The notes: generated from the sequence alone by a model not told the origin. A stretch of 64,000 nucleotides of DNA from Fistulifera solaris (GCA_030295235.1 AP026138.1:248001-312000), one strand, 5' to 3'. Positions 6,926 to 53,098 are shown, numbered from the stretch's first letter. Numbers and translations: made by a program.

Positions 6926-9900
6926 ATGGTTCAAGCCGAAATTCCTTTATGGATGTCCCACAATACGGTGTCAACGCAAGACGATCCTCCCCACCGGGCA
7001 CTCTCGTTGTGGCAAAACCAACAAAAATGTGCCATCTACAGCATTGACATGTTTGACAATCTCATAGCAACGGCCGGAGGCGATGGGACCGTCAAGTTAT
7101 GGAACAGTTCCGCTTTATTTGTTGCTGCGGAAGGAAAATCCCAATATACCGAAGCAGGAGAATACGCGAGTTCCGGATCGAGTGCCGAAGAAGACGAAGG
7201 CGAAACAAGTAGTAGTCCTCCTCTTTCGAATCATCACAGAAACGAGGAACCTGTACACGATTTAAATCAAGTTGTTCGTCGAAAAAGGACGGTTCACCTC
7301 GCAAACAACTATCATCGCCGCCCCGCATCGCTCGAGAAACCACTACATCGGCATCGGCATCTCACCGACTCGTCTGTACGCTCTCGGCACACACGGGTTC
7401 TTCCGTGTTATCGGTCCGCTTTGCACCATCCGGTCGGTATTTGGCTTCGGCCGGAGACGATGGCGCCGTGTGTATCTATGCTCCTTCTTCTGCCAAGCAA
7501 TGGTCCCGAATCCGTCTGTGTCGGGGACACAATCTCGATGTCGTCGATTTGGCGTGGGCCCCGGATGATTCGCACCTCGTATCGTGTTCGCTCGATTCAG
7601 AAACGCCCATTATTGTCTGGAAATTGACCGATTTATCGTCGACCACAAAATCCATGATTGGCAGTCCGTACAAAATACTGGGCAAGGACGTGCACACGAG
7701 TACCGTCAAGGGCGTCGATTTTGATCCGGCTGGATCGTATTTCGCGTCGTCCGGAGATGATCCGGCCGTCTGTATTTGGAGAGCGCACGATGATTGGGGT
7801 CTCGAACAACGTATCGATGCATCGTCCGGAATTTTCAAACAGTGGGATGGACAGTCATCATCCCATCAATCGCTGTTTCGGCGTTTGAGTTGGTCCACCG
7901 ATGGATCCTTTTTGTGTGCCACCAATGCCGTCGTTCGTCACAAAAATGTCGCGTCGACCATTGGACGGGAAGGATGGAATGTTGGAGCCGATTCGGCGAA
8001 TTTGGTGGGGCACAAACAACCCGTCGTCGTGAGTCGGCATGCGGCGTACTTGTTGGATGGGCGACGCCACAAAGACGAGGACGAAGAAGACAATGAGCCC
8101 GAAGCTGCGACACTGCTGGCATTGGGAGACCGACGAGGATTTGTGACCGTGTGGAGTACGAAAAAGTCACGTCCCATTTTCAAATTGCAATGCAGCGAAA
8201 GTCGTTGCACGGTGACCGATTTGGCGTGGGGCAAATTCGGTTCCGGCAAAGACATCCAAGCGATGGTCCTTTTAGTGTCGCTCTTGGATGGTCAAGTTGT
8301 GGCGATCAAATTTAGCGTACCGGACGAGCTGGGGCCATTTTTGAGTTCCGAGGATCAGGCTCGTGTGTTTCAACTCCGGTACGGCATTGAAATGGACTCC
8401 AGTAGTTTGGGTCAACGGCGAAAGATGCTGGTTGGAAAGGGCAACGGTGCCAGCGATCTGATCGAGAATGCTTTTCAAATGTCTTTGGAAGCATCAGTGG
8501 GTAAAACAGTTTCCGAATCAGAAAAGGACGATTCACCACAAGTTGCTCAAACTTCGGTGCTTTCTTCGAGCTTGGTTCGGAAAAAGAGCGACAACAATGC
8601 GGGACAAGACCGAAGAAAGCGAGCGCGATTAGTCCAGGTTGTGAACGACAACCCTACGCAAAACACAGAACGGCTAGAAAGCAGCACGCCACCGAAAGTA
8701 AACGAGCTCGATCCAATGCAAGCGGCATTGAATGCTGCCGAAAGGGCTACTGATATCCTGGAAGGCGCTACCTTATCAGGACAACCAGGGCAACCAAGTC
8801 GAACAATTCAGAATGAAAGAGGCCACACCGACAAGTCGTCACAGCACAATCAGTCCAATCACATTGTCAATAACATGACCTCCTCGGTCACCTCACCGGT
8901 TCTTCCTCATAATTCAAACCGTGTACACATTACAGCGCTCCCGATAACCACAGGAAGAAATGGCAACGGAGAACAATCCACAAAAGTAATCGTAGAGTGC
9001 ACAAATTCGTCAAAAATCCCCTCAGGATCCAAGGGCAATCCGGTTCCCTGCATCGACGTTGTGATAAAGAAAGACAGTACTGTAACATGGTCGGATCAGA
9101 TCGTCGGCACATCCTGTACGGCACTATCGGCATCGAATCGCCTTCTGGCCATCGGAACTGCCGACGGTTCCATCCAATTGTACGGGAACTCGCCCTCCAT
9201 TGGGTGGCTTGCGGCCAATGCTTTCCGCTCGCACCCTCCATTAATATTCAGTGGCGCTGTTGTGAGTTTGCGGCTAGAAGAGACCGATGCCTTGTTGCAG
9301 ATGCTGGTTGTCACCAGTGACGGTAGTTTCGGTCTTTACAGTGTGTTTCCACGACTATCCCTGATGAAAAAGGTTCCATTTTACCGCCCATGACTCACAT
9401 GGCGTTGTCGGCATCCAACAAGAACTTTGTTTATCCACAGCTATCTCGGATACAAATCACACGGAACAATCAGCTGCTGCTGCTTTTGTCATTTCCGAAC
9501 GGGGAAAGCCGGGGAGTCGGTGGCTCGATTCAATCCTTTGTGTACAACGACCTGTCCGAACTGTGGATGCGCCTGGCGGACAGTCGTTTTGTTCTTTCCG
9601 ATTTTTACAGCAGTTTGCCGTCCCGCTCTCCCGCCGGGCCTTTGACCGAAATGGACGATTCCGTGAAACTCGGTGCTCTGGAATCGACTCTCAAAGCCTC
9701 ACACCGCAACGCCAGTGCCATTTATTTACAAGGATCGGAAGGCAATTTTCTGGCCACGCGAGCGCATTGCGAAGATCGTTTGGCCTGTGCGGTCGCGTTC
9801 GAGTCGGGGCCCGAGTATCGTCTGTGGTTGGGTAAGCTGGTGAGAATCCTCTCCATGACCGGGGACGAAACGGGCTTGCGCCTTTGACGGAAATGATCCT

Positions 9901-24798: not shown

Positions 24799-26315
24799 CT
24801 ACGGTTCCATTTCAAAAATATCGTGGTCTTTCGCCTCGCCCAGATCCAACGCCATGAGCGACTCGGACAAATCGGATAAAATAGAACCTGGCAAGGATGC
24901 CGGCAATGAATGAACCGAGTCGTTATCTCTCGGTAAGAAACTTTCATCGCACGAATCAGACGTTCTAGTTCTACTACGCCCCGAACCATAACTTCGACTG
25001 CGTTTCCCTTGTGACTTTGACAAGTCACGCCCGCGAGTTTCTGTAGTACTTTCCTGTAAGAAACTCATAAGCAATGCTTCTTGAACACTATCCGGACTTC
25101 CTGGTACAATGGCATTTTGTATATCACCTTCCGATCCGTCAGGATTCGAGAGTCGAGGACTAAAACAGATAAAATTCTTGTCGTTCCACAGATGTTGCGG
25201 AGACCGCTCGGGAGTACTCTGGGACTCCTGCTGCTGCTGCTGCTGATTCGACCGCCACGGCGATCCAAAGGATGTTGGAGGAACATTGGGATGAGACCAG
25301 TCGGAAAGACTCGACATACCCGATATCAATGACGGTTCCGCCGGTGGCATCTCTGCTGGTTGCAAATCATTTTGTGCGGGATGAAAGGGACGTCCGAAAG
25401 CCTCCTCTGCAACGTCATTCATGGCGGCCACGGCTGCAGTCGACACACCGTTCGCCTGCAGTGATCCTGATCCCCTTCCTCGGAACATGTTGCGAATACT
25501 TTTCTTCAAGGATGAGCTCGAACTACTTTTGCTCTCTTCTTTTTCACTGGAGCCGGTGCAGGAAACGAAAAATCCGATCCACTCTTCTTTGCATACGTCA
25601 AGGGCTCGAACGGAACCGATGACGCCGCCTCGGCTGCTTCCATGCTTCGTGTTGTGTTAATTACTCGCTTGGCACCGCGACTCGATACGGCAACGATACG
25701 TTGCGGTTGCACCAGCGGCGAAGCCTTGGTTGGGTTTACTTCGGATTCAGGCTTTTGCACGAGTGTGTTGCTCTCGCCTTTTGGGCATTCCTTCAAACTG
25801 CTTTCTTTGCTTTTAACGTCGTCAACAGCTTTTTGCTTGGCAAGTATAGCATCTTCACGTAACGCTTGCCCCACCTTTTTGATAGCCTTCTCATCTCCGA
25901 TATCATACCAAGAACCATCCGGATCTTCCTTCAAAAATCTCCCCGGCGGATCCATACTACGTATCAAATATACGATTTCGGCCGCAATGTGCGCTTTCTC
26001 TAATTTCTTGGTCGAATGCGCGCGATAATCGTCTCGGCGCTGGGCGACAATTTCACGAAATTGCACATTCCCGACGTGCGCATTGATCCGGCCTCCGCGG
26101 CCCGAAATGACATCGTTTTTGTTGAGTCGGGTGACCGGTCCCATGTAACGAGGCGGAATGACGGCGAGCGGCCTTCGATGGTTGTGAATTGTTGGAGGCG
26201 GTCCACCAAAGACCACGGAAGCAAACGCGCCCGCCGTTAACCGGCGCTGTCGTTTGCGGTCTTGATCCACATAAAGTGATTTATGAGGAAAAAATGCATT
26301 GTGTGGGTAACTCAT
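24799..26315 (-). CDS. DUF6824-domain protein, paralogue A
   Basis: NDVISGRGGRINAHVGNVQFR..KKLEKAHIAAEIV..PPGRFLK..WYDIGDEKAIKKVGQALRE. A frameshift near 25520 joins ORF 24799-25509. Confidence 0.8.
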
Positions 26316-26984
26316 GGTTATTTTTTGGTTATATGAATCAAAAGTCAAGCAACAATGTTGTTGCAATGCAACACGGCCGCGAAGAAATAATAAGGGCACC
26401 TATTTATTTGTGTGTTTGTCGATCTACCCAGTTTTGGCGTACGAAGATGCCGTAGAATAGCTACGGCTACGGCGGCATCCCAACCACGAGCCAAAGCGGG
26501 AAGTCTTTTTTATCGACTTCCGAAATCCATTCGCAAGTTCGGGTGGTCGTTGGTCGTGCCGCCATCTTTCCAGAAGAAGGATTGTGTTTAAACGGAAACT
26601 AAAGATACGGTATCCAAGCACATAGTGTGACTTGTGTTAATTAGACTATTGATTGATAGTGTGGTCGCAACGTTACCAGGTACAAGCATGCCCGCGCCGT
26701 CCTTTGTCTTGAACATCCCTCGCTATTCCTAACTCTAAAAGCAAGACAACGATGATGATTGAAGTAAATTTTCAAATATGTGTCGCACCAGTAATCTTTG
26801 GTAGTAACGAAAAAACACAACGGAGAAATTTTTCACTTCACTGGGTCACGCGTCAGAACACGCACATGCACTCCGCCCCTCTTTAGCGAAAACAGCATAG
26901 CGATGTGATCATTCGCTCGTGCATGTTCCTTGTCATTCATTAGCATTCAATTCTCGATATCACATTGCAGATATATACATATTC

Positions 26985-28516
26985 ATGGTAAGTCAATGAA
27001 ATTGAATGACTTGCCGTAGAGGAAGGACCAACAATGGAGAATGCACGTAGAGAACTTATTCTTTTCGGACGACTGAATTGCCGATAAGTGCATTTCTTTG
27101 TTTCTTTCTACAATTCACTTCTCTCACACACACGTACACAGGACCGTCAACGCCAGAAACGACAGACGGCGGGTACGCTAGTACAAAAGCTATGGGGAAA
27201 GACGAAAAGAAAACATCGACGGCGCAACCGCGACCCGAGATTACGATTCCTCCGAGAGGAATCGGCCCGGTATCGATGCAAGAAATTAATGAAAATGATG
27301 TCCTCGCTGGCCGAGGCGGACGAATCAATGCGCACATTGGGAATGTTCAGTTCCGTGACATGGTGGCGGCACGGAAAAAGGAATATTTGGCCAAATCAAC
27401 CAAAAAGTTGGAAAAGGCCCACATTGCCGCCGAAGTGGTGCGGATCATCCGAAACATGACACCCCCGGGACGATTTCTCAAAGCCGATCCGGATGGGTTG
27501 TGGTACGATATTGGGGATCAGAAAGCGATCAAAAAAGTAGGACAAGCGTTGCGAGAAGATGCACCGGATGTACGAGATTCGGATGACGAAGATGACAACA
27601 ATAGTAACAATTATGAGCCGTTCGTCCAGTCCAGTAACACCATCACCCCGAAAGCTGTGATACAATTACCATCGGACCATCCGATGCAAGACGACGCAGC
27701 TTTTCATATACTTCCTTTGGTGACCGAAAGCACGCGACAACCGACTCCAACTACCACTGGATTCCGTTCGACACCGCCCATTGCGAAAGCCTTCGGTGAC
27801 TTGCTTCCGTACGCGGCGGGGACATCGGGGCGGCGGCCGCCGCGATGCAAGATGCTGACTTGGCAAGGAGATCCGACGAAGCGTTTGGACGTCCCTTTCA
27901 TCATGCCGACAAGGACATGTCCTTCATTTCTGGGTTTTCGGCCAGCGACATGGTATCGGATATTTCGGGTTTGACGGACCCCATGTCGACACTTTCGGCT
28001 CGCATGAGTCAACAGCGGCCCACTATGCGACAATCGAACAATACGGCTACCACGTACTCGTCCACATTCACTGGCACACGACAATTTTTATCCGCATCGG
28101 GGGCGGGTTTGAATCGGAGTAACTCGTGGAGTAGTCTATTTGATAACAACTCTTTGAGGGGTGGAGGGATCCGGGATAGTTCTCAGTTGGCAGGAAGTGG
28201 AATTTCGGGAATGCAATCCGTGGCGATGAGCGACGCGGAACAAAGGCGTGCCCAACGAAATGAGATACACCAATTTTACCAACAGCAGCAACAGCAGTAT
28301 TCTTCTCAGCAGCAACAGTTTCAACAACAAATGGCCCCTCCACCGCCCCAACCAATGTCTTCTTACCATCAACAATCATCACACCATGGCGGGTTACCGA
28401 CCGACATGTCGGTCGCTAGTATGTCCATGAACTCGGTGGCTTCTATCCCAGCATCCATCATGTCGGGATTATCTGATACATTACAAGCGCTCGACTTGGC
28501 GGAGCCAAGAATATAA
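26985..28516 (+). CDS. DUF6824-domain protein, paralogue B (first coding exon is the ATG only)
   Basis: ATG|GTAAGT at 26985-26993 and intron 26988-27141. Exon 2 begins DRQRQKRQTAG (cf. DRKRQRRLTAG in paralogue A). Same DUF6824 core. Frameshifts near 27195 and 27840. Confidence 0.8.
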
Positions 28517-28617: not shown

Positions 28618-29664
28618 TCATAACAAGGAATCGATCGGAAGAGGCTCGCCAATATCCATCGCGGTAAATGTCTCTGAAAGATCGGACAAGATCGATGCAG
28701 GGAATGAGACCGATCCGGAATTGATCGACATGCTTGCCACGCTACTGGGAGCTTGAAACGATGCTCTGCTCATGTATTCTGCCGAGTATGTATGTTGTCG
28801 GTACGGCTGTTGTCGTTGATCAAGAATCGAACATGTCAGATGACTGGACAGTCCTGAAATGAGAGAAGCATCCTTGGTTGTAGAGATTTCCATATCATCC
28901 AAAGTAGGAGGCGGATAAAAGACGCGACCGAACGCGATTTCTCCCGAGCCCTCAAGAGCGGCCGTGGCGGCTGCGCTTCTACTTTTTCGGTACCACCAAG
29001 CTGCTCCATTTTCGTTGAGTAGGAGGGACTTTCCGTACTTTCTTCCCGGAGGGAAGGGCGACGAATGGTCACCACAATCGGCTGACATGATTTTGGAGTA
29101 TTGCCTTCTTGCTTCACTGCTCCTTTTTCATGCTGTTGACACGATTTGTCGTCGGACTTTTTACTGCTCGACTCCAACTCTTCCCGCACATCGGGCGCGT
29201 CTTCCCGCAAGGCCTGTCCGACCTTTTTGATGGCTTTGTGGTCACCAATTTCGAACCAGGAGCCATCGGGATCTTCCTTCAAAAAACCTTCCGGGGGGAT
29301 TCAAATGTCGGATATGCTGAACAATACTGGCCGCAATGTGTGCTTTCTCGAATTTCTTGGTTGATTTCGAAATATAATCGGCCTTGTGCATGGCAACGAG
29401 TTTTCGGAATCGAACATTTCCAATGTGCGAATTGATACGTCCCCCTCGTCCCGCGAGAACGTCATTCTCCGACGGATGGTAAATGGGACCAATGCTTCTG
29501 GGCAGCACAGTGATTTCTGGTCGGGGAGGACCCGAAGGCGATTTTTTCTTCGAAAACATGGACTGCATCATCATAGGTCTCTTTCCGTAATAAGGGTAGT
29601 AACTGGGAGGCATTGCTTGAAAGAAATGAGCATTCGATTCTGGGTACCATGCGTAGTAGTTCAT
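28618..29664 (-). CDS. DUF6824-domain protein, paralogue C
   Basis: NDVLAGRGGRINSHIGNVRFR..KKFEKAHIAASIV..PPGRF/KEDPDGSWFEIGDHKAIKKVGQALRE. Frameshifts near 29283 and about 29090. Confidence 0.78.
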
Positions 29665-30293
29665 GCTTTGTTGTTTGCGACTGATTTCCAGGAATTGTGA
29701 CGATTGGTTGGAGATTGTGTTTGAATTTGAATTGGTTTGTTTTTTGTGATTCGTTTTGTTGCCATGCGGTTTTTGTGCGTAGTCGTTCGTAATAAGTCGT
29801 GATAGGACGGACGAGAATACAGAATACAAATACAGACCTGTTCTTCAATGCCGTTTCGGAGGAAAATAGTCATTACTATGAGTGAAAGTGTACGTTTTCG
29901 AGTTTTCACACGAACGATGAGATCACGACAGTACCGGACGTGCAAACGTGCTTCCTTTCAGACTTAACGGTTCAACTTTATCATCGTGTCGTACCGTGTC
30001 CGACGTGCATGCTACTATCGTACCGGTACCAAATAGTTACAGCAATTTCCACCACACAGCATTTGCGCGTGGATGACATCATCGATCCTTTGCACTGACG
30101 AAGAGACGCGAAAAAAAGCAGTCCGATGACGAATGACGGTCCTCAAAGCAAACCAAAATTGAACCAACAACAGCACAACAACAGCCTTGTATCTTTGAGT
30201 CTATCGTGACCTTTCAGTCATTGAATTATCTGAAACTTTGATCACTTTCCTTCATTTCTTAGTTCGAGCATTCCGGTTATCCTATTTGTCACA

Positions 30294-31494
30294 ATGAGAC
30301 TTATTGTACCTCTTTCTCTGTTGCTGCCGATGGCACAGTCATTCGTCGTCCAACGAGAGTCTGTATCTGCTGCTTCCAAACTGCATATGGCTTCTCCTTT
30401 CGACGAATGGCAACAACAAACACAGCGATTGGCTGCCTCTTTCGTCGCCGGTTCGGTTCTTTCGGCTGGCCTCATGTTGAACACGCCCACCGAAGCAATT
30501 GCGTTCGATTCGGCTGTTTTGGATACCACACCATCCCTCGTCGTATCGGTTGCGTCACCGGCTGCTCCTACGAAATCCGCTGCTCCTACGAAGGCCACGG
30601 CTCCCACCAAACCGGTGGATCCGTACAAGCAGGCCCTCGACAATGCCAAGTTCGCTTTGGAAGGAGCGCGTTCGGCCGAAAAGGCGGCCGTCGCTTCGGT
30701 CAAAACCGCCAAGCAAGGTTTGAGTTTGCAGAAAGCCGAGCTGCAAAAAGCCGAGAGTACCAGTCAGAATGCCAAAAAAGCTTTTCTTGACGCTAACGAC
30801 AAGCTAGCCAAGACACCGGCCGATCGAAGTACGAAGGAAATCAACGCCGCCAAGGAAAAAGTTGGTACGTAGAGAATCGTCAGTTGAAAAGTTTTTGATT
30901 GCGTTAGAGCCGACCGATTGCTGAGCTTTAACAAAACTTGCACTAACACTTCTTTTGATTGTTTCGAATATCAGCTGCCACAAAGACTGCCTCACAAAAC
31001 GCCGAAAAAGTAGTTGCCGAGAAAAAGTCGCAATATAAGGTTGCATCTCTAAAGTACAGTGCTGCGGAAAAGAGTTGGAAAAAATTCAAAAGATCAAGGA
31101 CGGATACCAAAAGAAGCTAAAATCAGCGGAGAAGAACTACGAAAAGGCACAGAAAGCGAAAGCCAAGGCCGACAAGATTGCGGCGGAAAAAGCCAAGGCC
31201 GCCGCCGAGGCCAAGAAGAAGGCGGAGAAAGCCGCCGCAGAGAAAGCGAAGCAATTAGAACGCAAGAAGCAAGCAGCTGAAAAGGAGCAAAAGAAGCAGG
31301 CGGAACTTCGAGCCAAGAAGCAAGCGGAAGAAAAGGCGAAGCAAAAGGCTGCACTAGAAAAGGAAATTAAAATGCTTCAAGAGGCTAAGAAAGAGGCAGA
31401 GAAACTCAAGAATGAGTCAGCCAAGCGTATCGCTGAACGCGAAGCCAAAATAGCTGCGGATCAAAAAGCACTGCAATCACTTAGCAAGAAATAA
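30294..31494 (+). CDS. Plastid (probably thylakoid-lumen) targeted Lys/Ala/Glu-rich coiled-coil protein
   Basis: Signal peptide ..AQS|FVV, transit peptide, then a second hydrophobic segment ending P.EAIA. Intron 30865-30974; frameshift near 31070. Confidence 0.65.
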
Positions 31495-31746: not shown

Positions 31747-33938
31747 CTACTCTGTCTTTTCCAAGGAGAACCAAAGAAAGTTCCAACCAGCTTCCAGTGC
31801 ACGGATCTGCAATGGAGAGGAGCCGGCAGGTAATTTGATTTCAGTTGAAATCGTTGTATATATTTGCCACCAGCCCGTGAGGGGAACACTGATAGTTCCG
31901 TAGACACTTTGAGTTCTGCCATTGACGAGTTCTAGTGCCCCTAATCCCATGTGACTAGCGACACGCATCTCTACTTTGTAGTTTCCACCACTGGGTAGGT
32001 CGACTTGATAGGTGACCCAATCGCCGACGTCGATATGACCCACGTTTTCACCACCCTCGGAAGATGGCTCCAATTCGATGCCTTTCATGCCGTCATACGC
32101 ACTGGCCGGAAAGAAGAATTTGGAGGTAGGAATACTTGCAGCTACTGATGTTTGGTTGGAGTCTGCAGTTAGGGGTTCAAGAGACAGCCAATTCAAATTC
32201 CATCCACCAACAACGGCCACAACTCGCAAAGGAACCATGCCCTCCGGCAAGTCAACGGATCCAATGCTGACTTTCTCCCACGTGTGCCAGTCACCCGTAT
32301 TCGGCACCGAGTCTAGCTGTCCATAAACCTCCTGTGTATCTCTGTCAATCACCATGAGCGACCCTTCAGACAGAGGACTGGCAACGCCAAGATCGAGCCT
32401 ATAGCGTCCGGCAGAAGGAACGGTGATGTTGTAGTCAATGGTATCTCCTGTGTCGATAGAGCCAATAGTCTTCGTACCGTTAACTGGAGATTCGTTCACA
32501 ATGCCATCGGAGCCGACGTTGTCGGTAGCAAGAATCATGGAATTGCCAGAAGTGAGATTCGCTGAAGTGGTATTTCCAGACTGATCACCGGCCGAGTTAT
32601 TTGCAAGTTCGTTGAGCTCGAGCGACATGAAGAGCAAGTTGAAGCTTCCTTCCATGACCACAATCTCTAAAGGAACGATACCGCTTTCGAGGTCGATGTC
32701 ATCGACGCTCACTGTGGTCCAATTCTCCCATCCTCCCGTTGCCGGAATCGAATCAATCGATCCGTAAATTTCTTGAGTGTCACTATTCGTGACAAGGAAT
32801 GAACCTGAACCATTCATACTAGCAACCTCGAGATCGAGCCTGTAGTTACCGGTGACAGGGACTTCCAAGTTGTACTTCATAAAGGCGGTATTGCTAATGT
32901 TGCCAATAATCTGCGGTGCTTCTGTCTCGACGCCAGCAGAGCTATTCATACTTGTGGAAGGAATCAAAATATGAACATCATCCGTCGTGTTAGTAGAATT
33001 GACGGAGGCAGAAGGAATCGATGTTCGTTCAATAATGAAATTCATCATGTTCCATCCACCTTCCACCACAAGGATTTCAAATGGCAAAAACCAGCTTCAA
33101 GAGTAACGTTTTCCACGCTTACAGTAGTCCATGAGTGCCATCCATCCGTTTGCGGAATGTTGTTTACCCGCCCATAGATTTGTTGAGTTTCGCTGTTCTT
33201 TACAACAAAGGAACCGTGTCCATACAAACTAGCAACTTGTACGCGAATCGCGTAGACTCCAAGGGCAGGGATGTTGATTTCGTACTTGACATAATCACCG
33301 GAGCTGGACTCGCCCAGGTTCCCATTGATTGGATCCACTGTTAACCCTTCCGCCCACGCAAATGCAGTTGCCGGAACCAAAAGTTTGCCGGGTGATGTGT
33401 CGATGCTAGCAGCAACGGTGCCATCTGACACTTGATTGAGCGAGAACCAACCGAGATTGAAACCTCCATTGATGATGAGAATTTCGAGCGTGTGGACTCC
33501 TGCAGGAATGTTGGCGTCACCGACTCGTACCGTGGCCCATTGCTCCCAAGATCCAGTTGGCGGGAGCGCATTGACTTCTCCGTAAATTTCAAAAGTTTCC
33601 GAATTAATCACAGAAAATGAACCCACATTATCCGCATTGGAGATGCGAGCTTGCAGTCGAAAGCGGCCTCCCATTTTGACGTCGACAGTGAATTTCAGTC
33701 GGTCCCCAGTGACAATCTTCGCCAAATTTTGTGTCCCTTCCGACGACTCGTCGATTACAACGCCATTGGGTACGATAAAATCGCCAGCATTGATCTTTAT
33801 TGTTTCAGATGCTGAACTTGATAATTCCGACTCTATTTGCCTCGTGTCATACCCGCTGCTTACTAGACCTCGCAACCGCCATGGAGCAGCGGTAGCAACA
33901 GGAAATAAAAGCGCTATCGTCAGAAGTCGTTTTAGCAT
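31747..33938 (-). CDS. Secreted non-catalytic protein with five CBM6-like modules
   Basis: Signal peptide MLKRLLTIALLFPVATA; five repeats of GD...Y.V.V...G.Y.L..RVAS..G.G.F....P.TG.W..W.TV....GGWN..W. Frameshift near 33085; no introns. Confidence 0.85.
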
Positions 33939-34427
33939 TACTTCGCTGCTTTTACAATGAAAAGAACTGGAAAATGAAAACATGCACTCGAAGCGAAGGA
34001 TCCCGAGAGCCGACTGGTAGACTTCTTGGACTTCGACGTTGCGGAATTTTCATGTAAACCTTATGATATTTTTTTTAGTACTTCTATGAAGAGTTCACAA
34101 AACTCGATGTCTTTGTCCTCGAAGTTCCGCTTTGAAAAAGACATTTCGGGGTTTTTAGTCAAGTATCAATAAGCAAGTGACATATCGCCCTTTCCACTTT
34201 CTGCTTCTCTCGTCAACAAACAATAGCAATCAGTGGTCATTGTCATTGGTCATTAATCAGTATTCAGTATTCTTTAGACTTCGACGTTCTTCTACTTTCT
34301 ACTATTAGAGACATTCACACATACTACTAAAAGTCAGATCTCAGTTATTAACTTACGGGGATTTTTTATTGTTATTAGACATTAATTAGGCTATATAATT
34401 TGATTTTTTCCCCGTTGTTAACGTTGT

Positions 34428-34499
34428 GCTGATGTGGCGCAGTGGTAACGCATTTGACTTGTAATCAAAAGATCCCCAGTTCAATCCTGGGCATCAGCT
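34428..34499 (+). tRNA. tRNA-Thr(TGT)
   Basis: Acceptor stem GCTGATG/CATCAGC; anticodon arm TTTGA-CT TGT AA-TCAAA; T arm CCCAG-TTCAATC-CTGGG; followed by a T-run. Confidence 0.95.
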
Positions 34500-34780
34500 T
34501 TTGCTAAGTTATCGTTTGTTCATTTTTTATACTCCGTACCAGTAATGCTGTCGTCTCCCTAGATTACCCGTCTTTGATATTTGACATGAAGTTTGAGCAT
34601 CATAAAACAATTTCAAAACCGTGATTATTACTTTTCAGAATGCCCATCTCCATAGGACACAAAATCAATACCTCAGTTCAAATCGCTTTATTATTAAATA
34701 TAAAGGTCGCCATTTAAAAAATGTGTTTGTTGACGGTGGCACAGAGCTACGCATGGGCGAGATGCCAGAAGTGGACTTGT

Positions 34781-35967
34781 TCATTCGAATGATGGTTCTT
34801 CCCTTTGCTGAGATCCAACCTCCACTTGTTGTTTCGACGAGTCATCTTGTAAGAGCTGTGTATTTTCTGTTACGTCTCTTCTTTCATTCGTGACACGTTT
34901 CTTCTCGGATTCTTCGGCAGCAACAACTTTCTCATAAGCCTTCCCGCTCAGCCAATCGTCTAGATCTTCAACATTCTTTCCAGTCGCGCCGTATTTGCCC
35001 ACAACAGTGGAAAATGTCATGGTGAAATCGCGAGGATCTTTGTAAACTCGTGCAGGGTGATAGACCATTACAGATACCTTGTCCGTTTCACCAACGACAC
35101 CATCAATTGGGTGCCAAACTTTGTGAGCTCCGTGCATCGCGATCATTTGAATGGGCGTAGTCTTGCGTGCCATACTGAACGCTCCATTGAAGACCTCAAG
35201 TAACCCATTTTCGGGTGTAGGATTGCACTGTCCCTCCGGTAAGATTCCCAAGTCGCACCCCGAGTTCAGCGCGTTTTTACAGGCCACCAACATCGCCTTG
35301 AAGGACTGTTTGTCGTACTCATTCGGCGTGCCGTGCCCGTTGGCTGCCATTCCGACAGGAATGAATCCAGCTTGCCGAAAAAATATCCGCGTCACCAAAT
35401 GGTCTTCGAGCTGCTTCCAGTACATGATTGTCATCCGACGACCGTTCATTTTCAATTGCGAATGTGCCGCTAGCAGCAAAAACACATCTAACAAACTCGT
35501 GTGATTGCACACCCAAATGCGCGGTTCGTCAATTGTCGGTATATCACCATAGTGCTGCACTTGTAGTTTGCAAAAGGAATCCATTTCATCAACCATCGAC
35601 TACAAAAGGCTGCGGTCGGTACGGCCCAGTTGTGAAGCTGCTTCTCGTTGATTAGTTTGAGGCGAAACAAAATTTGCTGCGGCAAAAGCGTCAGCGGCAA
35701 GGCGAGACACATGGCGACAATATAAAGGCACATTCCGATTTGTCTCAGTGTTTTTTTGACTTTCGGAAGAAAAGCTGTTTTAGTTGCGGTTGCTCCATTG
35801 ATTGCAGTTGAAGCGTTCAAAACGGCTGCATCCTGCTTAATGATTCTTAACTCTTTGCTGACCAATGGCTGTTCTCTGAAAGACACAGAGCGGAACTTGG
35901 GCGTTACAAACGCATTTGCTGGGCAAGCATAAGTGCACAAAAGAAAGAAGGAATAAAGGAACTTCAT
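34781..35967 (-). CDS. Plastid-targeted 1-acyl-sn-glycerol-3-phosphate acyltransferase (LPAAT, PlsC family)
   Basis: Leader ..ANA|FVTP; catalytic NHTSLLD; ILPEG motif; F.GAF. One T missing in a homopolymer near 35575. Confidence 0.88.
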
Positions 35968-36247
35968 CGTATCTTGTAACAATTTTAATGACGATCTTTG
36001 ACGACACAACAATTTTCTCGTCTGTCGCGATTATTATTATTTCATCTTCACGTTCGTAATTCATTCAAACGATGTCGCTAAGAAGAAGTTTTGCGCTATC
36101 ACAGATCAGTGGGATTGATAACCAGTCCGTCACTAGGAGTTGACCCCATGCTATGTGCTATGTGCTGTGTACCTCAAAAAAAATTAGCGAAGGCAACTTA
36201 TATTTATTTATGAACCTAAATTATACAAGAACACAACTATACCACAT

Positions 36248-37866
36248 TTAGCTCTCTTTCAGGGTTAGAGAGATCCACTGCAAGTCCCATCCTCCTTCAT
36301 TCACAAGAACTTCTAGCGGTACCACTCTACCGGCTTGTAAGTTGATATCGGATACTCGGGCTGAACGAGCTGTGGCCCAATCGCCAGTGGAAGGTAGATC
36401 GGAGAGTCCTCCGTAGGACTGAAGCGTATCTGCGTCGCGAAGAATAAACGATCCGTCGCCGGAGGGACTGCTAAGTCTCACCTCAATCGCATATGTACCG
36501 CTGACAGGAGGATTTACATCGAAGAGTAACCAGTCGCCCGCATCCAAATAGGCCATTGTTTGTGTTCGACCGTTGTCTCCTTGTAAGATCACCCCTGTGC
36601 ATCTACCAAATCGTCTCCTTGCAGTAATATGACAGTAGGAGCCGCTGGAGCGCGTCCTCTTCCGTTGCTAGTACTGCTCTGCGTGGATCCTCGAATCGGT
36701 TGCACCAATTCGAAATGCAACCATCGTATATTGAATCCACCCTCAGGGATCAAAACCGTTACATCGTGCTGACCCCTCGTCATTTCGACATTCGATGAAA
36801 CGACGACTGTTTCCCATGTTTGCCACCACCCAGTTGAAGGCATATTCGTCAAATCACCCAACAAAGCTTTCGAATCACTGTCAATGACGAGAAAGGATCC
36901 GTCTCCAGCGAGACTGGCGACGCGCACACTCATTTCGTATACGCCCGTGGAGGGAATGTCAGCCGTGAATTGTAAGCGGTCGCCATTCCCAATGTAACTC
37001 AAGTTCTCTCCGCCCTCACTACAAGGCTCGGTTACGATATCACCCGAGACTTCGAAATCCCCTGCTTCAATCATTACAACACTGTGGAAGGCTCCATTGG
37101 CGACGGTTGTCCATGAAGCCTCACCTGTACCGTCCGTTGGAGTACTATCAACTGTATCCCACCAGGTGGAGCCACCGGATGACTCCGTAGTGGCGGAGTC
37201 GGTAGTTGGGGCTCTGTCATTATCTTCATTTGCAGACGATTCTGCAGCAGTCGTATCGGTCGGGTCGTCCGGATTGAAAAAGGAGCCGCTATTATCTGTC
37301 GTGGAAGTACTCGTGCTTCCCACTGTAAACTGAGGCGACACCTTCATCCCATTGTAATTCCATCCTCCACTCGTCGCTTTCAATGATAATGTTAATGATC
37401 CTCTTGGTAACACAACGGATCCTCTGACTGACTCATAAACCTCCCAAGATCCTGTTGCCGGGAAATCTTTCATTTCTAAATATATTTCTCCCGTGGCGTA
37501 ATTCAGCAACTGAAAGCTTCCATCACCATCGGGAGATGCTATTTGAAATACAATGCTGTAATATCCATCTCCATGATAGACTGTCACATCATACGACATG
37601 CTATCGTCTGCGTCAATGAAAGCAATATTTTGTCCTCCCGCCGGATTGTTTTGTAATTCAACACCCTTCATATCACAAAATTCGTTAGCGGCGATGATGG
37701 ATTCCGCTTTGACGAAGCCGGCTTGACTCATTATACGGCCACAGCTGATTGTTGGCGTGGGCGGTTCTCCCCAGCCCGGTGCATCGGTCGGTGCCCCCGT
37801 CTCCTGTGCATGGACCGTTGAGTGATATATTATTGTAAATATGAAGGAAAGGAGCGTTTGCCTCAT
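36248..37866 (-). CDS. Secreted non-catalytic protein with three CBM6-like modules and a T/S/D-rich linker
   Basis: Signal peptide MRQTLLSFIFTIIYHSTVHA; modules with PATGSWE, PSTGWWQTWETV and PSTGDWA. Frameshift near 36592; no introns. Confidence 0.85.
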
Positions 37867-38472
37867 TATTTGATTGTACGGGTGCGGATAGAAACGAGAG
37901 GCTTCGAGATGCAGCATTCAGCATGCTTCCAGGTTCGATGAGAAGCGCGTATAGAACAAAAACGACAAACGACAACGACAAGCGTTTTTGTCGGAGGGAC
38001 TTTTCGTTTTTCAAATACAACACTACCCGCAAACACTCCCCTTGGTAAACGTCAGCATGTCCGATGTACGTATAAAATGTACTATGTAGTACGTCAGACG
38101 TAAGTCACCGACCACCGACGGTGACTGGGACCTACTTACTGCTGGACATGCTCTCAGAGACTCGAGCTGTAATGTACACCATCTTCAATGACCATTGGTT
38201 GACACTTATGGGCCTTTTCGATACATGTGATCGTGAAACGTGAAACTGATGGATCGTGCATCGTAGGCAAACCGCGAACCTTAATGGACGGGGTCAACGA
38301 ATTTTCACCTAAAAACCTCATAAAACTGGAAGCCTAAGCATCAAGAGCTTCGAGCAGTGAATTAAGTTCGCAACGAAAAGTGACATGCAAAGCGAAAACT
38401 ATATTATTGAAAGTATGGCTTTCTTTGGTAATTGATTGTACAGGAAAGCTATAAAAGACGTAGTGACCGCTC

Positions 38473-39795
38473 TTAGAGCCTGAAGGTTAGTGAGAGAAGG
38501 TTCCAGCCCTCACCGGTCACCGTTAACTTGAATTTTGAAGATCCTGCCGGTAGGGTTGCAGGAAAATCTACGCTCATTCCTTCAAACCAGCTGCCAGAAG
38601 CCGGAAGCGTCGAGGCTGAACCCATGAGCTGACCCGTCGCGGCATTTTCTAACCTGAAGCCACCGGATCCGTCGGGACTGGCAACTCTTACGCCGATATC
38701 ATAAGCGCCTGCCACTGGCACGTCGACGGTGTATTCCACAAAGTCACCAATAGCTAGTTGACCGAGCAACTTTCCATCTACAACGGCACCTTGGTTGCTA
38801 CTGAACTCTGTAGCGGGTACAATAAAGAAAGTTCCCTGAGGCTCAGGAGCCGTGCCATTCGCAGCGTTAAAGGCCACAAACATCAAGTTCCAGCCGCCTT
38901 CTACCACCAAAAACTGTAATGGCACGGTACCGGCCGTAAGTCCAATGGTTCCAAGATCCACCATAATCCAATCATCCCATCCCGCTGTTGCCGGAATGGA
39001 GGTTACCTCTGCCAAAATTTCGGAACTATCCCTGTTGGTGATGAAAAAACTTCCCAGAGCCGATGGGTTTGCAATTCGTATCCACATTTGGTAGGCACCT
39101 GTCGTATCAACCGGCACATCAAAGGCAAGCTTGTCACCCGAAAATAGGAAGGCGAGGTTCTGGTCGACTTCATTCGCTCGATCGACGACCACACCCGTCG
39201 GGACAGTGAACTCTTCAGCACGAACCATAATGTCATAGTCCTCATAAGCCTGCACATAGCCGTAGCCTTCCAGTAACGTGAGCTTCATCCATTGAAGGTT
39301 CCAGCCGCTTTCCAAGGAAACTAGTTGAATGATAGAATATCCTTCATCGAGTGCAACTTTTCCGAGAGACACCGTCTCCCAAGTCTGCCACTCCGAAGTT
39401 GCGGGGATATCTTGAAAGACCCCGTAAACTGTTCCAGTATCTTTATTCCGAAACTCAAACGCACCGTCGCCATCGGGGCTCGCGACTCGTACTTCTACGT
39501 CGAAATAGCCACCCGTCGACAGAGCCACATCGAAGGCCACAAAATGGCCCGCCTGCAGCCAACCAATATTCTTGCCCCCTTCCGAGCTATCTTCAAGCAA
39601 GACACCATAATAGTCACAAAGCGCAGCGACGTCTATGAAAATCTCGGATCCTATTATGAGTTTCTCGGGGGGAATTCCACTCGAGTAACATTGATTGGCA
39701 TTGGGTTCTTCGCCGTTGACTCGCCAAGGATCATCAATTTGTTGGGCGGCAGCTGCGTGAAACAGAGCGAGAATGATGGATATAAACAACCTCAT
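38473..39795 (-). CDS. Secreted non-catalytic protein with three CBM6-like modules
   Basis: Signal peptide MRLFISIILALFHAAAA; SSEGGKNIGW, RVASPDG, PATSEWQTWETV, GWNL repeated three times; intact intronless ORF. Confidence 0.88.
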   Translation of the reverse strand: MRLFISIILALFHAAAAQQIDDPWRVNGEEPNANQCYSSGIPPEKLIIGSEIFIDVAALCDYYGVLLEDSSEGGKNIGWLQAGHFVAFDVALSTGGYFDVEVRVASPDGDGAFEFRNKDTGTVYGVFQDIPATSEWQTWETVSLGKVALDEGYSIIQLVSLESGWNLQWMKLTLLEGYGYVQAYEDYDIMVRAEEFTVPTGVVVDRANEVDQNLAFLFSGDKLAFDVPVDTTGAYQMWIRIANPSALGSFFITNRDSSEILAEVTSIPATAGWDDWIMVDLGTIGLTAGTVPLQFLVVEGGWNLMFVAFNAANGTAPEPQGTFFIVPATEFSSNQGAVVDGKLLGQLAIGDFVEYTVDVPVAGAYDIGVRVASPDGSGGFRLENAATGQLMGSASTLPASGSWFEGMSVDFPATLPAGSSKFKLTVTGEGWNLLSLTFRL

Positions 39796-40396: not shown

Positions 40397-41197
40397 CTAC
40401 TGCTGTTGTTGCCGTGCAGCAAATTTGCCGCAAGGAACCATTTTGGTACCCGCGCCTAATAAACCCATGCTTTGTTCTACTTTCAATACGCCCTCAAGTT
40501 TCTTGGGGTTGTTGTTTATTTTTCCTTCAAAATACAGCCATCCTTCCGGGACCGTGTACGATGTCGACGTCTGCGTTGTTTTAGCTTCCTCGTTGGACCA
40601 AAACACATTTTGAATTGTGCCCGTCGTCTGAACTGTTCGCGTATAGCCAGTCACTCGCAAACGAAACCGAAAATTGTCATCCTTTACAATCCAGTCGCCT
40701 TCATCTGTTGAGCAGAACCCATCTTCATCGGGCTTATCAACAGCACATTTAGCCGAATTAAGAAAATCCACAACGATGTTTTCACAAGTCGGCTTTTCGG
40801 GAAGGTTTAGTCCAATATCCTTGTCACGCGTAGTGATAGTAGTACGGGCGGCAAATAGATCATTCGATGGATCTCTCGAAGAAATTCCGGCAAGATACAA
40901 TTCCAGAGAATATTTTCCTTCCAGTTGTGTCAATTGTTGTTGTTGTCGCCACTTCTCTTGTGTTTCTGTTAGACGACCGGATCTGGTGGTGGTTGTGTCT
41001 GATAGGCCCGAATCTATACTACCTGTTCGTTTATCAGCGCTCAAATCGGGAGAATTCTCGAATGCTTTTTTGAAAAGATCATTGAACAGTTGCAAGGAAG
41101 TTGATGACGACATTGACCTTTTAGTGCCAAGAAGCGGCGGGCTGAATGCAGAAGCCGGTACAAACAGCAGAAGCAGAGATAATATATGCAACTTCAT
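40397..41197 (-). CDS. Plastid-targeted protein of unknown function
   Basis: Intact 266-aa ORF with a canonical diatom bipartite leader ..VPASA|FSP. Confidence 0.7.
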   Translation of the reverse strand: MKLHILSLLLLFVPASAFSPPLLGTKRSMSSSTSLQLFNDLFKKAFENSPDLSADKRTGSIDSGLSDTTTTRSGRLTETQEKWRQQQQLTQLEGKYSLELYLAGISSRDPSNDLFAARTTITTRDKDIGLNLPEKPTCENIVVDFLNSAKCAVDKPDEDGFCSTDEGDWIVKDDNFRFRLRVTGYTRTVQTTGTIQNVFWSNEEAKTTQTSTSYTVPEGWLYFEGKINNNPKKLEGVLKVEQSMGLLGAGTKMVPCGKFAARQQQQ

Positions 41198-46610: not shown

Positions 46611-48774
<2,164 letters not shown>

Positions 48775-50184: not shown

Positions 50185-53098
50185 TCAACGGTTGCTTTTC
50201 TTCAATCCCCCCAAAACTATTTTCATCGAGCTGGATTTCTTTTTCACTAGCAGATTCAAGTCCCTGCATGCAAACTGCTTTCGTAGAACTCCGTTGAACC
50301 CTGTTGGTGGTTGCACGACGGATGATAGGTCAAGTGGGTCGGGAATCTCCCAGTCACACAAGAGAAACACATTCCTTTGTTCATTGACGCGATTCTTGCT
50401 TTCCCAGTCACGAAAGTCGGCGATACACTTCGATGCTGTGACACCCGATAGGTCTTCATCGATAAGAACAGCATCCCAGTTGCGCATCTTCAATAACCGA
50501 ATCGCATCTTGACCACTGTCTATGGAAACGACTTTCCAGCCTGTAGACTCTAACACCTTAACCGCGTCGGTCGTCATGGGCGATTCGCTGTCCACTGCAA
50601 TAAGACATACCGGCAACGATGGGCTGACTTTCTGTTCTCCGTCTGTTTTGGGCCTTTTATTTGTACTTGCGGTAGTTTTGCTCTTTTCAAAAGCGCGCTT
50701 AGCAGAATTTTTTACGTCGTTCGTCGGCGCGGGGCCATCTAGATGAGCTGACTGGCTACTTTCCTTCTTTGTTTCCTTTCGGCGTTGCGTCTCCGATTCC
50801 GTGGATAGCCCGTCCACGAGCCTGGTACTTGCTATAACTGCTTCACAATCTTGCAATTCAATCAATGTTTTGATGCTGATCGGCTTCGGCCGAAAATCGT
50901 CCATTCCGGCGTCGATTCCCTGATCGCTGTCTTTCACACTCACATGGGCACTTATACCAATTATTGGCTGTCGGTGAGTTGGGCGATTCTCCTTTTCCCA
51001 CTCTCGATATTGCTTGACACAATCCAACCCATCCATAACGGGCATCAGAAAGTCACAGAGAACCATATCAAACATCGTTTCTTTCATCGCTTCCAAACCC
51101 TCCAATCCGTTGACTGCCTGCTTCACTTCGTCGTATCCCAGCTTACTAAGAGCGCGCACCAGGCCTTTCCTAACCACAAGACTGTCTTCGATTACTAATG
51201 CTCGCTTTTGACGAGGGCCGGAATCGGTTTGTTCGGGAGCGGCGCAGGCTGGTGTTGGGATTGGATCAATCGCGGACTTCCTTGGAGGAACCATGTTCAC
51301 GTTCCGAACGAACAAAGAAGGCATTCCATCGCTATGCGGTTTTGCCTGTGCATACTCCATATCGAATACGGCATTAGCATAGCTTTCAGCCGGGCGATGG
51401 TATTGCATTTGAGTTCCAAAAGAATGCCACGATGCTGCTCTTGGTGCTGCCACACCGACTGCTGGTACCATTCCTCGTCGCGCGTAAAATGATGGTTCCG
51501 GATCTTGTGCTGAATACAAGCTGTTGTGTGATGAATATATGCTGCTATTGCTTCCACTCCGTAGCATTAATGGAACAAAAAGTTATGATTTGAAGAGGCA
51601 CGCTTGGTTCGCTTACGAGATGCAACGAAACTGCGACTGCTGTTGGAACCACTTTTTCGTAACCCACCGTTCTTGAGGCGTACACTATGCACGTCTTGTT
51701 CGAGATCAAGGTCTGAGAAATCTTCGTTGAGATGAAGAGAAAAGGAAAAAACGCTTCCGTTTTTCGGCTTGCCGTCATCGTCGGTTAGTGACATGCTTCG
51801 TGGTCTAAAATTGTATTCTCCGTCCATTGACTTAATTAAACTCGCCACACTACTCAGGGCTAAGAGCAAAGCGTGGTGCTCATCCTTGTCGGAGGGGCTG
51901 TTGGTGGCTTGAAAGAGATACGGGTAAAGTTCGACGGGTACATCGGGCGCAGTATCCTCGCACTCAAAAACAAGCAATGTCTTCTCGAAATCATCGGTGC
52001 ATTCTTTGAGGAAAATACGCAAATGAACGCTGCCCCGTTGTGTTCTTTCAGTGGCACTGGATAGCAAGTTCAGCGCAGCGCGGAATAACCTCAGATCATC
52101 GCAGCGGATCGTAGCTGGAACGGCAGGATCGAGTGATATAACCAAGGGAACTGACTTCGGGATGGGCTCCATGATAAGCTTGAGATTCTTCACTAAATCC
52201 ACTATGTTGGTGAGTGACGCAGCACCTTTCGTTTGTGAATCAGCGAGAGGACTGGCCAAGTCTATTTTATCATGTGAAAGTGTTTGTTGACGCAAACTGT
52301 CAATGGCCGTTTCACAAATACGTATTGTCAAGTCGGAACACGAAGTTGCTGTTGTCAATAGTTCCATTTGGTGATCATTCAGTAAAGAACACACTTGTTC
52401 GTCGTCGGCTAATAGAGATAGCGATAGCTGAACTCCCGACAAGGGAGTCATGAGATCATGAGCAGCATATGCAATTAGTTTTGCAGGGTCTTCTTTATGA
52501 ATGTGTTGCTGAAGTCGCCGTTGATCGACGACGGCTTGGATCGCAATAGCCGCTAGATCCGCCAGATGCTCGACTTGTGAATCCATTAGCAAATGTTCCC
52601 GAGGGTTTGGATCCATAAGACAAAAAGTGCCGAGCTGCATTGGTGAAGAAAAAGAACACGTGTCAGGAGAAGAACGGACGAAACGCGAGCGCTGTTTCAG
52701 ATACCTACTTTGTATCCTTCGGGTGATATCAGGGCCGCAGCTGCGTAGAAGCCTACATCCGTTCTCCCGGAATACTCAGGATGCTCGGCGACATTCTTTA
52801 ATTGTAGCGTGTTGAGAGTTGGGGACTGCACAAGATACGTGCAGATGGGAAGCGCTGTCATGGGTCTAGCCTTATCGTGCCGTGCTAAAAAATACTGCTT
52901 GCCGAGATCAACCAAAGATATCACAGCAGTAGACACGTCAAACATTCGAGTCGCAAGTTGCACCATTCTTTCTAAATGCGGATGATGATCGATATCCAGG
53001 TAGCTCTTCATCACTTTGAGGCGATGCAGCTCATCTTTCATCGACTGAACTCCTCCTTCCCCTTCCCCGTCAGCTTTTGAGATATTTGAGTTACTCAT
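50185..53098 (-). CDS. Hybrid histidine kinase-like protein: GAF-HisKA-degenerate HATPase-REC-REC
   Basis: GAF (RL....SY..LERMVQLATRMFDVSTAVISLVD..FYAAAALISPEGYKLGTFCLMD across intron 52635-52708); H-box AAHDLMTPL; REC1 VIEDS..LCDFLMPVMDG..ISAH..KP; second REC. Frameshift near 51580. Confidence 0.88.

Follow-up and report, generated by a model that had tools for sequence, protein, structure and literature searches.

Carbohydrate-binding modules of family 6 (CBM6) are, to our knowledge, described almost only as helpers of bacterial polysaccharide-degrading enzymes. Those attached to glucanases use a triad of an aromatic residue, a Trp and an Asn in their cleft A to hold beta-glucan chains or chain ends. 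CmCBM6-2 of the Cellvibrio mixtus enzyme Cel5B/lichenase 5A (1uxz, 1uy0) and the CBM6 of Zobellia galactanivorans LamC (5fui) are single modules on bacterial enzymes of glycoside hydrolase families 5 or 16 (GH5, GH16). By contrast, a stretch of 64,000 nucleotides from the diatom Fistulifera solaris (GCA_030295235.1 AP026138.1:248001-312000; hereafter the window) encodes proteins in which three to five CBM6 modules make up the whole eukaryotic protein. Five long open reading frame (ORF) pieces on the minus strand, at 31.7-39.8 kb, correspond to three such genes, A, B and C, within about 8 kb, whose products are probably, though by no means certainly, secreted non-catalytic glycan binders. Their modules share family and fold with CmCBM6-2 and LamC CBM6 and nearly all keep the Trp and Asn of the loop-side cleft; unlike these two, however, seven of the 11 lack the second aromatic residue or the Asn, and ten lack the N-terminal Glu.

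Tandem CBM6 modules are also found in AaCel5A of Acetivibrio alkalicellulosi (8zvk), which gives the best sequence match of any PDB chain (1.2e-62 over two modules). According to its description (PMC11926323), AaCel5A consists of a GH5_2 domain, two tandem CBM6 modules and a dockerin connected by Pro/Thr linkers; it is a catalytic cellulosomal endoglucanase, which the diatom proteins are not, and its CBM6 modules are unresolved in the crystal. The closest functional analogues are the laminarin-binding surface glycan-binding proteins (SGBPs) of marine Bacteroidota. According to a preprint (bioRxiv 10.1101/2023.09.07.556657), SGBPs are non-catalytic, contain up to eight CBM repeats and capture laminarin, so that they share with the diatom proteins an architecture of CBMs only, in several tandem repeats. 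SGBPs use other CBM families, however, and act on the bacterial surface, where, encoded in polysaccharide utilisation loci, they feed an uptake system, whereas the diatom proteins start with signal peptides of eukaryotic type, lack a secretion tail or lipid anchor, and are not encoded next to transporter or hydrolase genes. CBM6-only proteins exist among the bacterial relatives as well, either as three modules (P0035) or as modules with a type IX secretion tail (P0037, P0055). The closest relatives of the core clade in our trees, which holds ten of the 11 window modules, are five eukaryote-like proteins (P0132, P0044, P0054, P0041 and P0172) with Ser/Thr/Pro-rich linkers, whose modules keep the canonical residues and which, unlike A, B and C, carry a GH5 catalytic domain.

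All 11 modules of the window belong to CBM6 and have the CBM6 fold. The Pfam CBM_6 profile matches 11 stretches over the five ORF pieces (three plus two in A, two plus one in B, three in C), with scores of 32.0 to 173.7 bits against a gathering score of 28.9 bits, and the CBM_35_2 and CBM_35 profiles score lower on the same pieces. Both the family and the count of five, three and three modules agree with the original prediction, which had been made from the window's sequence alone; its layout of three same-strand genes within 8 kb, with a tRNA-Thr and an LPAAT (acyltransferase) gene in between, was likewise borne out by ORF scanning, ARAGORN and Pfam. When 862 six-frame window ORFs were searched with a profile made from the window modules themselves, the same 11 came up and no further CBM6 module, nothing else reaching an E value below 0.7. 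Apart from signal peptides and linkers, which are short except for a Ser/Thr-rich one in B, the proteins are taken up by modules, leaving no room for an enzyme domain. Pfam identifies only CBM families and no catalytic domain in the A, B and C polypeptides, and no glycoside hydrolase family in the 40 window ORFs scanned (10 around the cluster and 30 more), as expected from the original prediction of enzyme-free proteins.

Among solved structures, a profile of ten window modules matches 35 distinct PDB sequences. After AaCel5A, the best are CmCBM6-2 (1uxz, 1.8e-30), the LamC CBM6 (5fui, 1e-28) and BhCBM6 (1w9s, 1.1e-16), while agarase and xylanase CBM6s match far more weakly. The AlphaFold model of C (10-row alignment; mean predicted local distance difference test score, pLDDT, 83.3; predicted template-modelling score, pTM, 0.58) contains three beta-sandwiches. 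In a Foldseek comparison, which follows a check suggested with the original prediction and supports it, one C module superposes on 5fui with a template-modelling score (TM) of 0.90 and a root-mean-square deviation (rmsd) of 1.6 Å at 30% identity, and on 1uy0/1uxz with a TM of 0.84 and an rmsd of 1.8 Å; identity of a C module to these solved relatives is 30-31%. The AlphaFold 2 model of A (5-row alignment; mean pLDDT 70.9, pTM 0.39) shows five all-beta modules connected by low-confidence linkers, and thus a predicted beads-on-a-string arrangement. The bacterial character of the module family holds as well: its members are overwhelmingly bacterial, and the nearest solved relatives bind beta-glucan or laminarin.

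The N-termini of A, B and C open with a short run of charged residues, continue with a hydrophobic core (mean Kyte-Doolittle value 2.1-2.6 over 11 residues) and have small residues before a likely cleavage site. They are thus signal-peptide-like, as originally predicted, when judged from hydrophobicity and composition rather than by a dedicated predictor; AlphaFold models the N-terminus of C as a helix, with low confidence. A hydrophobicity scan of the three proteins found no other membrane-helix-like segment and no C-terminal anchor, and Pfam found no Por_Secre_tail or CHU_C domain in them. All three are acidic (pI 4.05-4.27). Cysteines are absent from A and number two each in the sequences of C and of P0014, the public protein of gene B. 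A contains 14 N-X-S/T sequons, B and C one each; the paralogues A and B/C may be glycosylated very differently.

Binding-site residues were tabulated as equivalents of 1uxz residues from the profile alignment to 1uxz, in which we take Y33, W92 and N121 to form cleft A, W39 to belong to cleft B and E9 to the structural calcium site. The W92 equivalent is Trp in all 11 window modules and the N121 equivalent is Asn in ten, B3 having Asp. Position 33 is aromatic in five modules (B1, B2, B3, C1 and C2) and is otherwise Lys (A1), Glu (A2), Asn (A3), Ser (A4), His (A5) or Gln (C3). The cleft-B Trp is retained in A5 and B3 only. The original prediction had read diversified specificities from a variable aromatic motif; the diversification is real, but the Trp of that motif is the invariant W92 equivalent, and the variation lies at positions 33 and 39. 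The full triad occurs in 588 of 693 bacterial modules and in 12 of the 14 modules of the GH5-linked eukaryote-like grade, as against 30 of 71 in the CBM6-only clade (orthologues counted separately); the N-terminal Glu occurs in 519, 11 and six of these modules, respectively, being typical of the CBM6 family and not a defining feature of it. Substitutions at position 33 match across orthologues that are 40-90% identical (A1, K/K/K/R; A2, Glu in 4/4; A4, Ser in 4/4), which indicates a fixed change rather than decay.

A, B and C would, on this reading, be old nuclear paralogues. The acidic proteins they encode would be routed into the secretory pathway, would each consist of CBM6 beta-sandwich modules strung together by short or Ser/Thr-rich linkers, and would bind glycans multivalently outside the cell or in the endomembrane or vacuolar lumen. 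Several modules per chain could provide avidity or cross-link polymers. By analogy, B1, B2, C1 and C2 most likely bind a beta-glucan-type ligand (laminarin/chrysolaminarin-like or mixed-linkage), because their nearest solved relatives bind laminarin and beta-1,3/1,4-glucans. The other seven modules, including all five of A, have probably changed their ligand or binding mode instead of decaying, as judged from the substitutions.

Several points weigh against this interpretation. The full cleft-A triad is present in four of the 11 modules (B1, B2, C1 and C2) and in none of the five of A, and the N-terminal Glu in C2 only, so that sugar binding of the known kind may be lacking in much of the array; the non-canonical position 33 of the gene A modules weakens a simple reading as an 11-valent beta-glucan lectin. 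The suggested ligand is taken from solved relatives only about 30% identical, glycan binding and expression of the three genes are predictions from sequence and models, and their secretory N-termini would fit vacuolar delivery as well as export. None of six gene identifiers of the cluster is present in 11 supplementary files of PMC5935921.

The strongest alternative, which we regard as distinctly less probable, is that the proteins are matrix or structural components, in which the CBM6 fold serves as a scaffold, a spacer or a protein- or mineral-binding part of the cell covering or of an adhesive, most modules having no carbohydrate binding. The loss of the triad in seven window modules and in most of the CBM6-only clade, the near-absence of the N-terminal Glu, the very acidic composition, the many sequons of A and the long Ser/Thr-rich linker of B would all suit such a role. 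Against it, the W92 equivalent is invariant and the Asn nearly so, four full-triad modules are conserved in orthologues, and the substitutions are fixed and not scattered, as for a changed specificity. Support for a structural role from localisation or proteome work was found neither in the literature, as covered by titles and the beginnings of abstracts among the matches listed, nor in the PMC5935921 supplements; within the same coverage, papers on F. solaris carbohydrate binding or on the Fistulifera frustule proteome do not mention these proteins, and none was found on diatom-encoded CBM6 proteins, most subscription journals lying outside the search.

A bolder version of the glycan-binding interpretation, which we put forward as speculative and rather unlikely, is that A, B and C represent a eukaryote-specific, probably diatom-lineage CBM6-only family in which bacterial-type modules that had worked with algal GH5 glucanases lost the enzyme, the modules multiplied and the clefts were re-tooled, yielding lectins for the diatom's own extracellular or wall polymers. 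The aromatic platform would have been exchanged for Lys/Arg, Glu, Asn, Ser, His or Gln, and the N-terminal Glu lost. Such lectins could, for example, cross-link the matrix when raphid diatoms adhere, or protect against bacterial glucanases, and would not be directed at the classical CBM6 ligands.

Genes A and B are each interrupted in the window by a frame change, at a T5 run and a G4 run, respectively. The public protein across the A break reads G-F-L-P-F-E, which requires six T, and P0014 across the B break reads D-A-Q-G-V-I-L-Q, which requires one more G; each run is thus one base short. The public proteins P0169 (A) and P0014 (B) are continuous through the respective breaks. So are the homoeologue P0170 and the relatives P0006 and P0005 at the A break, and the orthologues P0157 (557 residues) and P0158 (569 residues), both opening with signal peptides, at the B break. 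Introns at the two junctions were considered and ruled out: both junctions fall within conserved module sequence, and what restores the frame of the public proteins is one added base, not the removal of an intron. The three genes are intronless, as originally claimed, but A and B are not the continuous frames in this assembly that the claim implied. The LPAAT-like gene between A and B has a third one-base shortfall, in a T4 run that splits it into two ORFs, and all three shortfalls fall within 2.6 kb. Pyrosequencing and nanopore sequencing both miscount homopolymers. The F. solaris genome was obtained by pyrosequencing and later re-assembled from nanopore reads (bioRxiv 10.1101/2021.11.10.468027). 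With public proteins and orthologues continuous at both sites, homopolymer-length errors in the assembly are the most likely cause, and A and B are most likely intact in the organism. The interruption of both frames might otherwise suggest that A and B are pseudogenes, an old transfer decaying by frameshifts. This is very unlikely, since each break concerns a single homopolymer base with its counterpart in the acyltransferase gene, identical public proteins read through, neither gene has further stops, the homoeologue and orthologues are intact, and fold-defining residues are conserved. The breaks also advise caution about homopolymer errors in this assembly more generally.

P0014 (FisN_8Hh123, 494 residues) is 100% identical to both gene B pieces. 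Its annotated start is a Met that lies 62 residues inside the ORF, so that the signal peptide is left out; the gene B ORF itself has a signal-peptide start, as do P0157 and P0158. P0169 (FisN_8Hh121, 730 residues) is 100% identical to the downstream ORF of gene A (31747-33087), and the upstream ORF agrees with it by eye. The protein encoded by C has a letter-for-letter match in the protein atlas. The window represents subgenome H of the allodiploid F. solaris, and the subgenome L homoeologue of A, FisN_8Lh121 (P0170), is 90% identical. A third genome carries a copy of A (P0006, 85-88%; 87% identical to P0170) and a copy of C (P0001, 96%) on one contig. More distant, intact orthologues are P0005 (A-type, 69%), P0157 and P0158 (B-type, 65% and 56%) and P0010 (C-type, 40% over its full length).

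An exhaustive search with C returned 4197 proteins at E <=1e-3 and 90 at E <=1e-30. The best matches are CBM6-only proteins with signal peptides (P0005, P0010, P0157, P0158, P0009, P0011 and P0012), followed by long bacterial proteins, often with PKD domains, esterases, lyases or GH26; 14 of 30 scanned representatives have a type IX secretion tail. The named bacterial relatives include Abyssalbus, Rufibacter, Microbulbifer, Roseateles, Massilia, Cohnella and Thalassocella, and the protein atlas search yielded large bacterial CBM6 clusters only. A scan of prokaryotes (one genome per species) with a 3-module alignment and two peptide patterns, and hence a biased sample, found 15 loci with 29-44% identity to module A5, ten of them in Bacteroidota (33-44%). 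In a table of 13 algae that assigns one family per protein and in which F. solaris is absent (S2 Data, PMC11960938), CBM6-labelled genes occur only in Aureococcus and Nitzschia sing1 and CBM35-labelled genes in T. pseudonana and four Nitzschia, while neither label occurs in P. tricornutum, F. cylindrus or S. robusta, which suggests a patchy distribution of CBM6 among algae.

The bacterial affinities of the best named relatives outside the family, including the share of Bacteroidota loci and of type IX tails, might be taken as a sign of recent bacterial transfer into F. solaris or of bacterial contamination of the assembly. This is scarcely credible. The cluster lies amid typical diatom genes (a TPI-GAPDH fusion, DUF6824, HIRA and Rad52), its GC content (0.475-0.507) and GC at third codon positions (GC3, 0.457-0.508) resemble those of eight other genes measured in the window (0.477-0.516 and 0.471-0.61), and its signal peptides resemble those of eukaryotes. 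Both subgenomes and a third genome carry copies, separate orthologues at 40-69% can be assigned to every paralogue, and bacterial modules come no nearer than about 44%.

To trace the older descent, 778 modules extracted from 299 proteins or locus ORFs were placed in a FastTree phylogeny. There, 56 of 59 modules from 16 pre-labelled diatom-like proteins fall in one 68-tip clade (support 0.97), which also takes in modules of six further proteins; those proteins and their neighbours have Ser/Thr/Pro-rich linkers and no bacterial domains. In P0041, P0054, P0132, P0044 and P0172, same-lineage CBM6 modules are joined to a GH5 domain, and their sequences make algal beta-glucan-active enzymes possible; P0023 is a truncated close relative of P0172 in which Pfam identifies CBM families only. 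A more careful IQ-TREE analysis (LG+G4, 126 columns, bootstrap not fully settled) covered 125 modules, 57 eukaryote-like and 68 bacterial, the latter being every 16th tip plus forced neighbours and locus modules; the other 653 were near-duplicate orthologues and most of the bacterial modules. In this tree a clade of 44 eukaryote-like modules contains ten of the 11 window modules (98/96). With the root placed by choice on one bacterial module, the clade is nested in a GH5-linked grade comprising 55 of the 57 eukaryote-like modules (77/83). Next outward (97/86) are modules of P0185 and P0180, bacterial GH5-CBM6x2 endoglucanases whose full-length identity to a Roseateles protein is 70%.

Module types recur across the genes, B1 grouping with C1, A1 with C2 (99/94) and C3 with the third module of P0010, and A2-A4 and B3 fall in one 94/98 group. 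Every window module pairs with its own orthologue at 100%. The window modules are 22-41% identical to one another, and the only DNA-level repeat among A, B and C is a 48-nucleotide motif at 60-75% identity. The low identity between modules, the lack of DNA repeats and the separate orthologues (69% for A, 56-65% for B, 40% for C) show an old triplication and no recent burst, contrary to a local expansion in the recent sense of the original prediction; by these sequence comparisons, the three paralogues arose before their lineage parted from that of the species behind P0005, P0010 and P0158.

Module B2 is the remaining window module. It groups with bacterial modules in the FastTree, quick and careful trees (in the last with five bacterial modules, 99/91); approximately unbiased (AU) tests did not reject its placement in the core clade, with p 0.397 against the careful tree and p 0.898 against the quick tree; the free search behind the latter had overlooked a tree better by 51 log-likelihood units. 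B2 may have a separate bacterial origin or may belong to the core clade.

The most likely ancestors of the family are bacterial-type CBM6 modules once attached to GH5 in algae. Under this scenario the modules would first have resided on algal GH5 enzymes, the enzyme part being lost later, and the bacterial origin, which is plausible from the trees, would be ancient and indirect. The bacterial derivation in the original prediction thus stands in part: bacterial GH5-CBM6 enzymes are next outward, but the nearest relatives are the eukaryote-like GH5-linked modules. Three features of the evidence count against this descent. The tree is built on 126 columns with a root that was chosen and not inferred, and the tested groups were named after trees had been seen; the label 'eukaryote-like' derives from Ser/Thr/Pro linkers, the lack of bacterial domains and tree position, in several cases after the first tree; and the GH5 domains of P0132 (eukaryote-like) and P0185 (bacterial) show only weak similarity. 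Given this weak likeness, transfer of a whole GH5-CBM6 enzyme gene is not claimed, and the CBM6 modules and the GH5 enzyme need not have travelled together. The nearest solved structure to the P0132 GH5 domain is 9ku5 (2.5e-24), deposited as 'Glycoside hydrolase, Putative beta-xylosidase GE32', and glucan 1,3-beta-glucosidases match at 1.5e-15 to 1e-7.

That A, B and C are instead enzyme fragments, spliced in the true transcripts to a glycoside hydrolase exon, a case named with the original prediction as one that would refute it, is suggested by those close eukaryote-like relatives with GH5 (P0041, P0054, P0132, P0044 and P0172) but is most improbable, since a signal peptide and a stop codon are present in each of the three genes, the orthologues P0005, P0010, P0157 and P0158 share the same ends, and the 40 window ORFs scanned contain no hydrolase family to be joined.

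The original prediction had presented the cluster as a candidate undescribed system, which overstates its novelty: the CBM6 family, tandem CBM6 arrays and CBM-only proteins are known, and UniRef already names the automatically annotated public proteins of A and B (P0169 and P0014) 'CBM6 domain-containing protein'. Of interest are the eukaryotic enzyme-free family, its apparent descent via GH5-linked modules and the fixed loss of canonical residues. In a benthic, oil-producing diatom, a maintained enzyme-free multi-CBM6 family would be a candidate organiser of the cell's own extracellular glycans; a second candidate role would be to control beta-glucan where the diatom meets bacteria that consume it. 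Genome editing is reported for F. solaris (PMC13276009). The fixed replacements of binding residues define a concrete set of modules in which to seek new specificities.

The features of the locus are listed in Table 1. The tRNA-Thr between A and the acyltransferase gene lies outside the CBM6 family, and the LPAAT-like acyltransferase gene between A and B is an unrelated neighbour. An Rfam scan of the window found two tRNAs and nothing else.

Table 1. Positions of the CBM6 genes, their modules and other features in the window (cleft-A triads given as residues equivalent to 33/92/121 of 1uxz)
Feature	Position	Strand	Remarks
Gene A (public FisN_8Hh121, 730 residues)	31747..33938	-	signal peptide and five CBM6 modules; frame broken in window
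Gene A ORF piece (ORF scan)	33045-33983	-	CBM_6 E 1.6e-25, 2 stretches
Gene A ORF piece (ORF scan)	31747-33087	-	CBM_6 E 2.4e-51, 3 stretches
Module A1	33423..33818	-	position 33 = K
Module A2	33028..33398	-	spans frame break; position 33 = E
Gene A frame change	33086..33090	-	T5 run, one base short
Module A3	32605..32991	-	position 33 = N
Module A4	32164..32559	-	position 33 = S
Module A5	31750..32136	-	position 33 = H; cleft-B Trp kept
Gene B (public FisN_8Hh123)	36248..37866	-	signal peptide, module, Ser/Thr-rich linker, two modules; frame broken in window
Gene B ORF piece (ORF scan)	36589-37917	-	CBM_6 E 5.5e-33, 2 stretches
Gene B ORF piece (ORF scan)	36248-36592	-	CBM_6 E 1.7e-7, 1 stretch
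Module B1	37324..37719	-	triad F/W/N
Module B2	36697..37095	-	triad Y/W/N; most bacterial-looking of the modules
Gene B frame change	36592..36595	-	G4 run, one base short
Module B3	36251..36595	-	Y/W/D, Asn replaced; first strand upstream of frame break
Gene C	38473..39795	-	intact 440-residue ORF; signal peptide and three CBM6 modules
Gene C ORF piece	38473-39795	-	CBM_6 E 6.2e-39, 3 stretches
Module C1	39265..39660	-	triad W/W/N
Module C2	38854..39249	-	triad F/W/N; sole module with N-terminal Glu
Module C3	38476..38853	-	position 33 = Q
tRNA-Thr (anticodon TGT)	34428..34499	+	ARAGORN; Rfam RF00005, 68.1 bits; between A and acyltransferase gene
Acyltransferase (LPAAT-like) gene	34781..36012	-	PF01553 E 6.8e-13; between genes A and B
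Acyltransferase ORFs	35488-36012 and 34781-35596	-	split at T4 run
Acyltransferase homopolymer	35572-35575	-	T4 run, one base short
DUF6824 gene	25506-26399	-	E 2e-28
DUF6824 gene	27078-27974	+	E 6e-29
DUF6824 gene	29242-29829	-	E 2e-18
ORF without Pfam family	30294-30872	+	just downstream of gene A
ORF without Pfam family	31075-31494	+	just downstream of gene A
ORF without Pfam family	40397-41197	-	266 residues
TPI and GAPDH domains	46611-48596	-	adjoining ORFs
ORF pair	7405-9887		HIRA WD40 and Hira domain
ORF pair	24799-26399		ORF and DUF6824
ORF pair	46611-48596		TPI and GAPDH
ORF pair	50185-52640		His-kinase and receiver

The remaining neighbours that Pfam identifies are ordinary diatom genes, encoding HIRA, a thioredoxin, Rad52, three DUF6824 proteins, a TPI-GAPDH fusion and a hybrid histidine kinase. 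The DUF6824 trio forms a second small local gene family beside the CBM6 cluster. The TPI domain and then the GAPDH domains lie in adjoining ORFs, presumably a TPI-GAPDH fusion of the kind we take to be typical of stramenopiles. The 266-residue ORF has a signal-peptide-like start followed by A-S-A-F-S-P, which resembles what we take to be a diatom plastid-targeting motif. The two ORFs just downstream of gene A show a signal-peptide-like start and then a long Lys/Ala/Glu-rich stretch, which is probably a coiled coil, and they contain a 34-nucleotide direct repeat. Finally, the abutting or overlapping ORF pairs elsewhere in the window may reflect short introns or more homopolymer errors.

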